Of a stretch of 64,000 nt of DNA, positions 3,135-46,104 are shown piece after piece (position 1 is the stretch's first letter; the number at the start of each line of letters is the position of its first letter). This stretch comes from an uncultured Eubacteriales bacterium (GTDB lineage Bacteria; Bacillota; Clostridia; Oscillospirales; CAG-272), in assembly GCA_934432725.1 (NCBI GenBank), contig CAKRZE010000001.1, positions 137,945-201,944 of the forward strand, given 5' to 3'. Under the pieces are notes generated by a model, which saw only the letters and a list, made by a program, of their open reading frames with translations, did not search any database and was not told the origin of the DNA. The translations under genes and the position numbers were made by a program.

Positions 3135-3826
3135 TGTCCGTAACCGTTGCTTTTGCGGAAGAAAAGCTTCCTTTCCCGGATTATTTTTATTACAGTATCG
3201 CTCTGCGATTCCTGACCCGCTTTCGTTTCCTGTTTCTCGGTGCATCAGGCAAAAGACTGCCGAAAACGCCTCCGGTCAAAGAGCTGCAAAAAGATACGAT
3301 AGCATAAGCCGGATTGATTATAGCACAGAGTAAAAACGCTGTCAAGTAAGGCGGATTCTCCAGCCGGAGCGCGGGCAGAAAAGGAACAGATTTTTCTTGT
3401 ACATTCGGTTATTCCCGCACAGTCACACTGTCCAAGGGGGAATTCGATTCCGGCACAGTCGGCCCGCATTGGCGGCAAGAGTACGAAGCCTGCGGGGCTT
3501 TTTTACCGAACACAGAAAGCCCGCCATGAGGTTCTCTTTCGGAAAGAAATTAACAGCTCCTCGAAAACGCCGGACTGGATTCCTGCATTTTTGATGCAAT
3601 CTTGGTGTTTTTGCCCCAGAGTCTTTGGTTTTCGGATGATTCCGCGGCAAAACCGCAGCGCCTGACCGCCGAGACCAACGCCGGCGTAGCGTAAAAACGC
3701 AAAACGTGTTTTCTACGCTCCTATTTTCCGGGAAATACGGTCCGCATTTCCTCGGAAAATGCCGCAGCATTTTTCTTTTTGCACATATTTTTTTCTGATA
3801 TTCGTACAAAACGCCGATAGTGTCGA

Positions 3827-15630: not shown

Positions 15631-15771
15631 AAATCAATAAGACCGGAAAAATCAAGCTCCGAAGGTAAAAAGCTGCCGGGGGAACAACGTAAGAACACAC
15701 GTGTTTATTATACTTGTTTTTGTGTGCCAATTATACCAAATAGAAATTTAGTACAATTGAGTGAAGCAATC

Positions 15772-23993: not shown

Positions 23994-24176
23994 TCAGTCA
24001 TCCATTTTTTGTGTAATGATCGGTTTTCCGTCTTTATCCAGAAGCGGAGTCAGCCCGCCCGCATGTCCGTCTTGATGAAACAGATAATTTACACCTGTTT
24101 CATTATCTACCCAGATTTCCATGGTTGTCAATGTTCCCTGCGTATAAAGCACTTCGAACCGTTTCCCTTTTGACAT
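23994..24176 (-). CDS. Small conserved hypothetical protein (DUF6440-like)
   Basis: MSKGKRFEVLYTQGTLTTMEIWVDNETGVNYLFHQDGHAGGLTPLLDKDGKPIITQ. Strong RBS GGAGGAAAAG before the ATG. Family name is from memory of similar small Firmicute proteins. Confidence 0.6.
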   Translation of the reverse strand: MSKGKRFEVLYTQGTLTTMEIWVDNETGVNYLFHQDGHAGGLTPLLDKDGKPIITQKMDD

Positions 24177-24360: not shown

Positions 24361-24478
24361 CTGCCATGACGCAGCAAAAGTGGGCATTTTTGCGAGACCG
24401 TCAATTGCGCAGCCGCGCGGGGAGCGCGGACACAGCGCACAGCGGCTGGATTTTGCCGCTTCCGCAAAAGCTCTGCGC
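24361..24478 (-). ncRNA. A-type structured module (candidate ncRNA or cis-leader), copy upstream of the DUF6440-like gene
   Basis: On the minus strand: closing helix GCGCAG (24478-24473) / CTGCGC (24412-24407) encloses hairpins TTTTGC..GCAAAA, CAGC..GCTG and CCGCGC-TCCCC-GCGCGG. This is followed by AA, then TTGACGGTCTCGCAAAAATG. Same layout as modules at 45313-45420 and 45544-45660, with compensatory helix changes. Confidence 0.45.
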
Positions 24479-24489
24479 ATGATATCTCA

Positions 24490-24578
24490 AATCAAGCAAG
24501 CCTTCATGAATTTGCGGCGAAGCCGGCAAATTCGCAAAATGCGGCAGACCAACTATGCCTCTCAGGAAAATGTTATCC
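24490..24578 (-). repeat. X-type repeat module (head ATGCGGATAACA plus core CTGCCGCATTTTGCGAATTTGCCGGCTTCGCCGCAAATTCA)
   Basis: About 85% identical by eye over ~100 nt to 43623-43720, and ~75% to 45436-45537. Confidence 0.6.
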
Positions 24579-24584
24579 GCATTG

Positions 24585-24613
24585 ATTATACCATAAATCA
24601 TCTGAAAAATCAA
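24585..24613 (-). promoter_or_regulatory. Near-consensus promoter heading the X/A composite
   Basis: The minus strand reads TTGATT, then a 17 nt spacer ending in TGG, then TATAAT (extended -10). Confidence 0.55.
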
Positions 24614-36495: not shown

Positions 36496-36497
36496 CG

Positions 36498-36871
36498 CTT
36501 TGACCAGACCTGTAAGCCGGGTTCTGTCATATCCCTTTCGGAACGTTACGGTCATCTGTCTTGTTCTGCCGTTACCGGCAGACTCTGTGCCACCCAGGAG
36601 ATTCCGGCGGGCAGCCGTGACGGTTTCCCGTCCTCTCCACGGTGTTGCTTCGGATAGGGTTTACATTTGCACGGTGTTACCACAGTGCCGGTGAGCTCTT
36701 ACCTCGCCTTTCCATCCTTACATGATGAAGCCATCATGCGGTTTATTTCTGTTGCACTTTCCCGGAGGTCACCCTCGGCGGACGTTATCCGTTATCCTGC
36801 CCTGCGAAGCCCGGACTTTCCTCACGCTGACACCTTTCGGCAACACAGCGCGCGATCGTACCGTCTGGTCA
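36498..36871 (-). ncRNA. rnpB: RNase P RNA, bacterial type A
   Basis: The minus strand contains GAGGAAAGTCCGGGCTTC (36823-36806), GGGAAAGTGCAACAGAAA, GGTAAGAGCTCACC, and ACAGAACCCGGCTTA (36527-36513). P1 pairs GACCAGAC (5') with GTCTGGTC (3'). It has its own promoter and terminator. Confidence 0.9.
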
Positions 36872-43593: not shown

Positions 43594-43622
43594 TTTTCAA
43601 CCGCACATTCCTATGGTATAAT
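43594..43622 (+). promoter_or_regulatory. Promoter heading the X-type module upstream of the prs-like gene
   Basis: TTTTCA, then a 17 nt spacer ending in TGG, then TATAAT (extended -10). Confidence 0.45.
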
Positions 43623-43627
43623 AAATG

Positions 43628-43705
43628 CGGATAACATTTTCCGAATAGGTGCAACTGGTCTGCCGCATTTTGCGAATTTGCCGGCTTTGCCGTCAAATTC
43701 AAGAG
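43628..43705 (+). repeat. X-type repeat module
   Basis: GCGGATAACATTTTCC...GGTCTGCCGCATTTTGCGAATTTGCCGGCTTTGCCGTCAAATTCA. Matches 24490-24578 (minus) and 45441-45514 (plus). Confidence 0.6.
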
Positions 43706-43976
43706 GCTTTACTTGAATTTATGGATAATGTATCCGGTTTTATCTGTACATCGGTACGGCGGCAGCGTACCTGCCCTGATGTACAGTGCAAATGATGCTC
43801 CCCGGACCTGCGGCAGATGCATATATCCCTGAGCAGATGGCGCGGATATCTGATTTGCCCGCCCACGTCTGGATGTGTTTTTTCGGTTTCAAAGCTTTTT
43901 CATACGCCGAAAAGCGGTTTTTGTACACAAAACAATGTCAGCTCATCAATGATTTTGAAGAAAGGAATCCGCACCG

Positions 43977-45281: not shown

Positions 45282-45310
45282 TTGAAATTTTCCCTATATT
45301 ATGGTATAAT
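45282..45310 (+). promoter_or_regulatory. Near-consensus promoter opening the module array
   Basis: TTGAAA, then a 17 nt spacer ending in TGG, then TATAAT. Confidence 0.6.
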
Positions 45311-45312
45311 AA

Positions 45313-45420
45313 CCGCAGGAAGGGCTGCCGAGCATCCCTTCGCGGCTGACGCCTCTCCGTGCTTCGCACGGCTGCGGCATTGACGGCTTCGCAAAAATGT
45401 CTGTGCAAGCACACATTTTT
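45313..45420 (+). ncRNA. A-type structured module 1 with intrinsic terminator (candidate small RNA)
   Basis: P1 CCGCAG (45313-18) / CTGCGG (45372-77). Hairpins are GAAGGG-11 nt-CCCTTC, GGC-TGAC-GCC, and CCGTGC-TTC-GCACGG. The tail is TTGACGGCTTCGCAAAAATG (45380-99). The terminator is AAAAATGTCTGTGCAAGCACACATTTTT (45393-45420). Confidence 0.5.
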
Positions 45421-45429
45421 GCTTCATGA

Positions 45430-45520
45430 TATAATAAATGTGGATAACAATCGCACGACAGGCGCAGTTAATCTGCCGCATTCTGCGAATTTGCCGGCTT
45501 TGCCGTCAAATTCATGACAT
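45430..45520 (+). repeat. X-type module inside the array, with its own TGaTATAAT box
   Basis: TATAAT at 45430-35, TGTGGATAACAA head, and core CTGCCGCATTCTGCGAATTTGCCGGCTTTGCCGTCAAATTCA (45473-45514). Confidence 0.55.
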
Positions 45521-45537
45521 CTTGCTTCAATCTGTAG

Positions 45538-45660
45538 TATAATACGCACAGGAAATCCTCTGCCGAGGCTTTCCGGGGCTTGACAGCCCACAGCGCGGCG
45601 CTTTGCCGCGCGTGCTCCTTGACGGGCGGCGTAAAAATGTTTGTGCAAGCACACATTTTT
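45538..45660 (+). ncRNA. A-type structured module 2 with intrinsic terminator
   Basis: TATAAT at 45538-43. P1 GCAC/GTGC. Hairpins are GGAAA-14 nt-TTTCC, GGGC-TTGACA-GCCC, and GCGCGGC-GCTTT-GCCGCGC. The tail is TTGACGGGCGGCGTAAAAATG, with the same terminator hairpin as module 1 (45633-45660). Confidence 0.5.
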
Positions 45661-45668
45661 ACTTGCGG

Positions 45669-45769
45669 TTTAATACGCACAGGAAACCCTCTGCCGAGGC
45701 TTTCCGGGGCTTGACAGCCCTCAGCGCGGCGCTTTGCCGCGCGTGCTCCTTGACGAGCGGCGTAAAAAC
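45669..45769 (+). ncRNA. A-type structured module 3 (direct repeat of module 2, no terminator hairpin)
   Basis: 95 nt at 45675-45769 differ from 45544-45638 at 3 positions (period 131 nt). Preceded by a degenerate TTTAAT. Confidence 0.45.
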
Positions 45770-46104
45770 ACCACATCCTCCTCATTTTATCATATCCGGC
45801 TGAAAACTGTCCGGCATCTTGTACCGTAACGCACCCTGCACAAGGCAAGAAAAACTCTGCGGCAGCAGGCGCTCCGACCGCATGCAGATTCTGCCCACAA
45901 TGTCTCGGCAGAAATTTCATATCCTTTTTCGCCAACCATATTTCGTTTCAGCAACCGATTCATCCACGGACATTTATATACTCAACCTCTGTTTTCAAAG
46001 TGCAAAGCTGCTCTGCCGCACAGTTGCAAGCAGTACAGTATTCAACTGCGGCATTCAAACCAACTGAAGCCATCACCGGCATACGCAAGAAAGGAATTTA
46101 GCAT

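Follow-up and report, generated by a model that had tools for sequence, protein, structure and literature searches.

We analysed a 64,000-nt stretch of DNA (the window) from an uncultured Eubacteriales bacterium of the Clostridia (assembly GCA_934432725.1, contig CAKRZE010000001.1), in which the region 45282-45772, between a prs-like gene and a P-type ATPase gene, is taken up by a head-to-tail array of four short units. Three of them belong to a family, here called A-type, that is real, conserved, structured, widespread in gut Clostridia and uncatalogued in Rfam 15. Below we describe this family, its fold, its boundaries, its position, its turnover and its strand bias. Tentatively, with a probability of about 0.4, we read the A-type unit as a duplicative, promoter-to-promoter structured DNA cassette whose fold would operate in the bottom strand when this is single-stranded DNA.

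A sequence-only reading of the region had described a series of four promoter-headed modules, the first, third and fourth of one type (A-type), and most of this description was borne out. Units 1, 3 and 4 are A-type, unit 2 is a separate B-type module, and a -10 box heads every unit. The near-consensus promoter is present as claimed, TTGAAA (45282-87) with a 17-nt spacer, an upstream TG and TATAAT (45305-10), and the TATAAT of unit 3 (45538-43) is preceded by ATGACA with an 18-nt spacer. By sequence scoring, for hexamers 16-18 nt apart or an extended TGn -10, 45282-45310 and 45514-45543 qualify as sigma-70-type promoters, with 11 of 12 positions matched in each. The boxes of units 2 and 4 are TGATATAAT (45427-35) and TTTAAT (45669-74), and in the array region as a whole promoter-like sites number 9, compared with 1.9 expected. 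On its own, each of the three A-type units forms a closing helix (P1) around three hairpins (P2-P4), again as proposed, and the fold is followed by TTGACG(G/A)..CG(C/T)AAAAA. In unit 1 this cloverleaf is the minimum-free-energy fold both as RNA and as DNA, on both strands. The near-identical end of units 1 and 3 was also confirmed: it is a 28-nt A5/hairpin/T5 element, AAAAATGTyTGTGCAAGCACACATTTTT, with no further occurrence in the window. Its hairpin and the following T5GCTT are present and stable when folded. Intrinsic terminators have a G+C-rich stem and a U-tract; here the stems are AT-rich and bulged, and a simple terminator scan did not call them. The direct repeat formed by units 3 and 4 stands as well, with a spacing of 131 nt and 96% identity over 101 nt.

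The array is noncoding, as the same reading had held. A 150-aa minus-strand open reading frame (ORF) across the repeats is called in two same-species contigs, without a Pfam hit. A third same-species contig (L002) is short of exactly one 131-nt unit, either 3 or 4, and the ORF is not called there; it is therefore probably spurious. Small ORFs, starting at AAAAATG or lying in antisense frames, were read by eye and dismissed as unconserved and at odds with the compensatory changes described below.

To collect the family, we ran an exact-pattern scan with the A-type linker on one genome per species, which gave at least 120 loci. About 75 of these are true A-type units, all from metagenome-assembled genomes (MAGs) of Clostridia. 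The carriers among the matches listed are labelled Oscillospiraceae, Ruminococcus, Eubacteriales, Lachnospiraceae, Congzhengia, Ca. Avispirillum, Flemingiibacterium, Colimorpha, Ornithomonoglobus and, once, Syntrophomonadaceae. One A-type copy came from a viral-contig collection. A second viral scan, anchored on the hairpin, recovered only this already-known locus, and BLAST of a canonical A-type unit against plasmid and phage collections gave no match. Helix sequences are wholly different between lineages, and RNAfold alone recovered the closing helix and three hairpins in 63 of 87 box-headed matches. A covariance model (R1) trained on 17 sequences found 103 matches in 80 sources. The window units scored 106.8 (unit 1), 55.2 (unit 3), 48.4 (a fifth A-type unit elsewhere in the window) and 18.5 bits (unit 4); with three of its units detected in this way, the array is not a chance arrangement. 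Over the 103 matches, 94.7% of cells pair, versus 73.2% in shuffles and 39-50% with slid partners; double-changed cells number 700 versus 177. The sequence-only reading had proposed to look for compensatory variation among copies, and it is there, at 35 of 36 base pairs. Outside the helices, 7 of the 11 complete array partners not caught by the search anchor keep the linker segment TTGACGGC.

That reading could match the units to no known RNA family, and our searches uphold this: no Rfam 15 family covers the units, in the window or at 17 canonical loci. At the gathering threshold, RNase P was the sole Rfam match in the window, with none on the array. At E<=10 the array gave only chance hya matches, of 16-17 bits against a threshold of 56.8 bits, and no unit was matched at any of the 17 canonical loci. 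ARAGORN found no tRNA or tmRNA gene in the window. Keyword and exact-sequence searches of the literature returned no description of the family, and the text and the first 200 of the 408 supplementary files of Fremin & Bhatt 2021 contain nothing on it. We rate the A-type family among the bacterial interspersed structured repeats. Two side observations belong here. In one locus (L025) a Gut-1 RNA (RF01706) lies at 3671-3746(-), 2.3 kb from the A-type unit, with a score of 50.2 bits that is exactly the gathering threshold. The linker's AUUGACGG (e.g. 45379-45386) is identical to a universal stretch of 16S rRNA, positions 919-926 in E. coli, the 907R/926F primer site; it is an 8-nt match, probably due to chance, and was set aside as such.

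The boundaries of the unit are sharp. Family-wide, conservation runs from T.TGGTATAAT to just past GCTTCATGGTATAAT, and in unit 1 it ends exactly at the trailing box (45421..45435). Each unit is thus flanked on both sides by the extended -10 box TGGTATAAT. The upstream box faces into the cassette and is, in this array, a conserved host promoter. The trailing box is either the promoter of the next unit or stands, at typical promoter distance, before the ribosome-binding site (RBS) of an unrelated gene. From 5' to 3' the cassette consists of the closing helix around three hairpins, placed directly behind a sigma-A -10 hexamer, a conserved 3' module and GCTTCA with a new TGGTATAAT; the 3' module is made up of TTGACGG, a GC-NNN-GC mini-hairpin and the A5/hairpin/T5 element. 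Truncated units, too, begin at the box, and what they retain is the 3' module. A direct repeat extends past the box in only a few loci, so that P1 is in general not target-derived. The tandem arrangement first noticed in the window is typical of the family, whose arrays hold one to three units, with two or three in 20 of 78.

As a rule the arrays share the direction of the gene behind them: of 62 arrays, 56 have a co-directional downstream gene and 3 an opposite one. On the upstream side the gene runs in the same direction in 35 and is divergent in 26 (~40%). This is the pattern expected of something residing in the downstream gene's promoter. The downstream genes themselves are unrelated: from the translated starts we read HTH (helix-turn-helix), response-regulator, CinA-, RsmE-, NrdR-, ParA-, QueA- and HolA-like products, and clustering of neighbour proteins at the loci found no recurrent family. 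This distribution bears on the proposal that the array consists of riboswitch-like units ahead of the cation ATPase, that is, tandem riboswitches or attenuators controlling that gene. The array does lie in the 5' region of the ATPase, and the units look like an aptamer followed by a terminator. The link to one gene family or pathway that marks a riboswitch or cis-attenuator was, however, not found, because the downstream genes are unrelated throughout the family. Moreover, the conserved nucleotides lie outside the junction and loops, a new promoter follows each unit, and Rfam gave no match.

The relatives of the ATPase locus speak against the proposal as well. In a sister species (L139) the ATPase is 91% identical, the SIS-prs-ATPase order is the same and the same two promoters are present, with no A- or B-type unit. 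The counterpart of the host promoter there is TTGAAT-17-TATACT, and the promoter orthologous to that of the B-type copy at 43614-43722 likewise lacks its unit. Homology between the two species breaks 2-8 nt past the -10 hexamer and resumes only at the RBS. ATPase orthologues at 80%, 71% and 70% identity are also without units, the sister-species ATPase leaders are ~480 nt long and non-homologous, and a metagenome scan with the prs-like protein gave six loci at ~50% identity, none with units. Because the orthologues lack them, the units are lineage-specific contents of long, fast-changing leaders and not a control element of the ATPase. Contradicted by the distribution, ATPase control is a reading to which we give hardly any credence.

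The relation of the closing helix to the promoter bears on the remaining explanations. Initiation by sigma-A is expected ~7 nt downstream of the -10 hexamer. P1 starts 0-4 nt past the hexamer in 74 of 81 units (2 nt past it in the array of the window), and its 5' strand occupies roughly positions -6 to +2 relative to the expected start. Covariation is seen at all six pairs of P1. Since P1 starts upstream of the expected +1, the primary transcript of the adjacent promoter is short of most of the P1 5' strand, and because the upstream gene is divergent in ~40% of arrays, read-through RNA cannot provide that strand either.

The fold also differs between the strands. On the minus strand the P2-P4 loops comprise 76 GNA triloops and 33 GNRA tetraloops, almost always closed by C-G; on the plus strand there are 5 GNA and no GNRA loops. 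GNRA and UUCG loops taken together number 0 on the plus strand versus 33 on the minus strand. Helix mismatches on the plus strand are pyrimidine:pyrimidine in 96 cells versus purine:purine in 21, which makes them largely R:R on the minus strand. G:U pairs occupy 42 cells (1.8%) versus 38 for A:C, with no excess of G:U. Under RNA as well as DNA parameters, 66-76 of ~81 units (about 80-90%) fold with greater stability on the minus strand (p 4e-8 to 3e-14), a trend that the window units follow weakly. None of the marks of a structured RNA read on the sense strand (G:U far above A:C, sense-type loops, better sense folding) was found. On the minus strand the linker GGCTTCGC becomes GCGAAGCC. Hyper-stable DNA mini-hairpins are reported (Hirao, Yoshizawa) for d(GCGAAGC) and for GNA triloops closed by C-G. 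Triloops predominate in the family and GNNA loops such as GATA and GTTA are also found, which fits DNA rules better than RNA rules. The fold thus appears tuned not on the strand transcribed from the promoter but on its complement.

These results weigh on the idea, drawn from the sequence of the array, of tandem promoter-headed small RNAs with a closing helix. Its structured, conserved family and its tandem arrangement stood; its closing helix did not, as in 74 of 81 units P1 begins too early to be contained in the transcript that the adjoining promoter would give, and loop types, mismatch types and folding energies further weaken a sense-strand RNA. In its fullest form the units would be sibling trans-acting small RNAs. 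Each box would drive a ~100-nt sense RNA with three hairpins, a ~20-nt single-stranded stretch containing AUUGACGGCUUCGC and a terminator hairpin, which would act by base pairing or protein sequestration, tandem copies raising the dosage. Strong promoters and terminator-like hairpins do bracket the units, the single-stranded stretch is retained in 7 of the 11 complete partners outside the search anchor, orthologous copies are under purifying selection with compensatory changes, and tandem siblings with their own promoters have precedents in LhrC1-4 and Qrr. Yet P1 covaries although it would lie outside such an RNA; loops, mismatches and energies favour the antisense strand; G:U pairs are as rare as A:C; a fixed trailing promoter and the 56:3 co-orientation are unexpected for free-standing small-RNA genes; and the hairpin stem is AT-rich and uncalled as a terminator. 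We consider this explanation unlikely, if well short of implausible.

The same strand asymmetry is what strand-prediction methods read as the transcribed strand, and a structured antisense RNA from the minus strand, arising for example from a promoter paired bidirectionally with the trailing -10 box, would span the whole four-way junction, with P1 wholly inside the transcript. TATAAT followed by A gives TATTAT on the other strand. Against such an RNA, there is no conserved minus-strand promoter: by a rough count an A follows the box in only ~45% of the units listed, and conservation does not go past the box. A minus-strand transcript would run into the A5/T5 hairpin ahead of the junction and would tend to be stopped by it, no terminator follows the junction in single units, and the excess of triloops over tetraloops together with the GNNA loops follows DNA rather than RNA rules. 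An antisense RNA is in our judgement quite improbable.

Copies of the unit turn over. Paralogues within one MAG differ by compensatory changes, some copies are truncated, and related loci differ in the presence of units. Truncation and presence/absence differences would also suit a DDE-type MITE (miniature inverted-repeat transposable element) with terminal inverted repeats, a 9-bp target-site duplication equal to TGGTATAAT and incidental hairpins. The 9-bp direct repeats that flank the units agree with it, as does subfamily I, in which the right end's reverse complement, GCAAAAATGCTTGC, agrees with the left end GCAGAAAGCCTTGC at 11 of 14 positions by virtue of two alike hairpins. However, the sequence-only reading had itself named terminal inverted repeats and target-site duplications as the signs of a plain MITE, and the ends we found are direct repeats of the -10 box, with inverted-repeat likeness in one subfamily only; the two ends of the low-GC subfamily II are not alike. 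Every flanking repeat has the sequence TGGTATAAT and is seldom longer; a target-site duplication would vary from site to site, and a MITE would here need near-absolute target specificity. All four internal helices covary, which means that they are selected and not incidental, and strand asymmetry is unexpected for a double-strand cut-and-paste element. We regard a DDE-type MITE as very improbable.

In the reading that we prefer, the promoter-to-promoter cassette, the unit would be a DNA module, duplicative and probably mobile, which multiplies at -10 boxes or inserts there. It would end the incoming transcript and restore an extended -10 for the host gene, and it may be tolerated because of this, the promoter being rebuilt behind the cassette. 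Its fold would act in bottom-strand single-stranded DNA during copying or recognition rather than in a sense transcript, and a ~100-nt sense RNA would be a by-product or have a secondary role. The array in the window would then sit within a long, fast-evolving ATPase leader, with unit 4 as a decaying duplicate. A more specific version seems doubtful to us: a ~120-nt single-stranded-DNA mobile element, of a kind not described before, homing specifically to sigma-A -10 hexamers, with a bottom-strand cloverleaf carrying hyper-stable GNA loops and HUH/rolling-circle or IS200/IS605-like chemistry, which would offset the effect of its insertion by combining a transcript stop with a replacement extended -10 and whose copies the host would later have kept.

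Several points weigh against the cassette. No transposase, recombinase, circular intermediate or empty-site intermediate was identified at the loci, and spread is deduced from the architecture only. The fold stands between a near-consensus promoter and a terminator-like hairpin, which is exactly the layout of a small-RNA gene. The alignment behind the pair counts was fitted to the covariance model, and the linker served as the search anchor, which inflates its apparent conservation. Orientation relative to GC skew shows a weak bias that is not strict (35 positive, 20 negative). At three orthologous loci from three species (L021, L124, L125) the unit is much better conserved than its flanks, with two compensatory double changes in P4 and zero uncompensated stem changes; this argues for a function in place and is not predicted by a purely selfish, decaying element. 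Finally, copies in the same genome are highly divergent yet intact (u1, u3 and u5; L013/L041; L024/L072), unlike a young MITE burst.

Several known systems share part of this architecture. REP/BIME sequences and REPINs (with RAYT, a Y1 HUH enzyme) are likewise short, extragenic, clustered and noncoding, fold as single strands, show compensatory changes and persist for long, with any enzyme encoded elsewhere. REPs, however, are single hairpins with a GTAG head, found mostly at gene 3' ends in Proteobacteria, whereas the A-type unit is a four-way junction with a conserved 3' module, always at a -10 box 5' of a co-directional gene, and no RAYT was identified among its neighbours. Palindrome-associated transposable elements (PATEs), non-autonomous derivatives of the IS200/IS605 type, share the lack of classical inverted ends, subterminal hairpins, on our reading single-strand activity, a fixed short adjoining sequence and the lack of a real target duplication, and in subfamily I the first hairpin resembles the last. 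In contrast to PATEs, no TnpA or TnpB is linked to the units, subfamily II has no matching end hairpins, and three extra covarying helices are left unexplained; we know of no IS200/IS605-type member with a TATAAT target. Correia elements of Neisseria and the pneumococcal BOX and RUP are also ~100-150-bp intergenic repeats; they are transcribed and have promoter and terminator activity, as the A-type unit may have. They have inverted ends, TA or short duplications and no promoter specificity, whereas A-type units are flanked by direct -10 boxes with their orientation fixed to the next gene. Integron attC sites resemble the units in variable sequence with conserved structure, on our reading in folded bottom-strand DNA, in co-oriented arrays and in a short conserved boundary core; unlike attC, a single bulged hairpin, the unit is a cloverleaf with no ORF per cassette, and GTTRRRY/RYYYAAC (R''/R' cores) was not seen by eye at unit ends. 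Neither an integrase nor attI was noted, though no search aimed at an integrase was made. The siblings LhrC1-4, Qrr and PrrF1/2 are tandem ~100-nt units, each equipped with a promoter, a terminator and a conserved stretch that is single-stranded, but their folds lie inside the sense transcript, with no obligatory trailing promoter and no fixed orientation to the next gene. Compared by description, the bcr repeats of the Bacillus cereus group (intergenic in Firmicutes, some with conserved structure and compensatory changes) and the 'putative mobile promoters' (promoter-bearing sequence common to non-homologous genes) are similar in kind, with no sequence or architectural match.

The features in the window are collected in Table 1. 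Beside unit 2, the window holds two more promoter-headed B-type copies, with 93-98% identity to unit 2 over ~45 nt. Their closing helix is AATGCGG/CCGCATT, 2-3 nt past the box, the same closeness to the box as that of the A-type P1. Apart from one conserved hairpin, B-type units fold weakly (z -1.1 to +0.3; unit 2: -1.07), and a B-type hidden Markov model found no match in 128 fetched loci. One of the copies forms a B + A pair at 24376..24593(-), upstream of a small DUF6440 ORF (60 aa, 23994-24176(-)) that lies directly 3' of the pair and is followed by a HAD-family hydrolase; in an orthologue comparison of this site the neighbours were not syntenic. The A-type linker and the B-type hairpin are complementary over no more than 8 nt (GCCGTCAA), and copy b3 has lost this match; the complementarity was not relied on. 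In the window GCCGTCAA/TTGACGGC occurs at 12 sites versus 2.8 expected from shuffles (e.g. 8021, 9452, 50476, 50618); most of them are in coding DNA, and the excess may be a codon-usage effect.

Table 1. Units, promoters and other RNA features of the window, in positions of the window.
Feature	Position	Strand	Details
Fifth A-type unit	24376-24480	-	48.4 bits, covariance model
Third B-type unit	24485-24593	-	followed by the fifth A-type unit
Bacterial RNase P class A RNA	36497-36871	-	256.6 bits, Rfam
Second B-type unit (TGGTATAAT + body)	43614-43722	+	upstream of the prs-like gene
Host promoter heading the array	45282..45310	+	-35 TTGAAA, 17-nt spacer ending in TGG, -10 TATAAT; 11/12, TG present
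Unit 1, A-type cloverleaf	45313..45377		P1 45313-18/45372-77, P2 45319-41, P3 45344-53, P4 45357-71
Unit 1, conserved linker	45378..45392		CA-TTGACGG-CTTCGC; reverse complement includes GCGAAGC
Unit 1, A5/hairpin/T5 element	45393..45420		terminator-like in either direction
GCTTCA + TGATATAAT	45421..45435	+	trailing box of unit 1 = leading box of unit 2
Unit 2, B-type	45436..45536		closing helix AATGTGG/CCGCATT 2-3 nt past box; hairpin 45487-45513
Promoter-like ATGACA-18-TATAAT heading unit 3	45514..45543	+	11/12
Unit 3, A-type	45544..45662		P1 45546-49/45612-15, TTGACGG 45619-25, A5/T5 hairpin 45633-60; 55.2 bits
Unit 4, A-type, with degenerate box TTTAAT	45669..45771		copy of unit 3, linker TTGACGA, without A5/T5 hairpin; 18.5 bits
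Remaining ATPase leader	45772..46104	+	no homology to leaders of ATPase orthologues

Some further observations concern sequences around the units. Exact TGGTATAAT boxes that head neither an A- nor a B-type unit occur only twice in the window, at 15738(-) and 35954(-); an inverted repeat, GGCACAC...GTGTGTTC, comes after the first of these. In the rest of the ATPase leader, at 45853-45865/46013-46025 and 45894-45912, there are inverted repeats and also CTCGGCAG, a sequence that could pair with the P2 loop region in units 3 and 4, to which it is complementary. Subfamily II (L024, L050, L060, L069, L072, L098, L107) has an extra conserved segment of ~45 nt past the trailing box, GATTTTGCGGCATCTAAATTGTRCAC..ATTCTATAAT, ending in another TATAAT. 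At one locus (L081) a different structured segment lies ~15-180 nt past the unit, between two -10 boxes (TGGTAGAAT ... TGGTATAAT), which suggests that other module types share the box-to-box layout. Another locus (L013, 7347-7514) has a second unit with an internal tandem expansion of a ~22-nt P3/P4 segment (CACTCCGTGCTACGCG...) up to the contig end. The orthologous loci L021, L124 and L125 share the blocks AATAGTAGGTCCTAATACGAGCTTGCGAGTATCAAGGTTCTC and GGTTCTTATTATTCACTGTTCTCC ~120-170 nt 3' of the unit, which may be another non-coding element.

The family is worth modelling and masking, as annotation pipelines call probably spurious ORFs across the units and a unit can be mistaken for a riboswitch or a small-RNA gene. 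If our reading is true, gut Clostridia carry class-wide structured repeats that live inside promoters, where their effects would be reshaped 5' regions, newly created promoters in tandem and short transcripts. The family would bear a rare signature, a fold selected on the non-transcribed strand, and would stand beside REP, Correia and attC as an added member, possibly with a new mechanism. It would also be a concrete case for how promoters get copied between genes.

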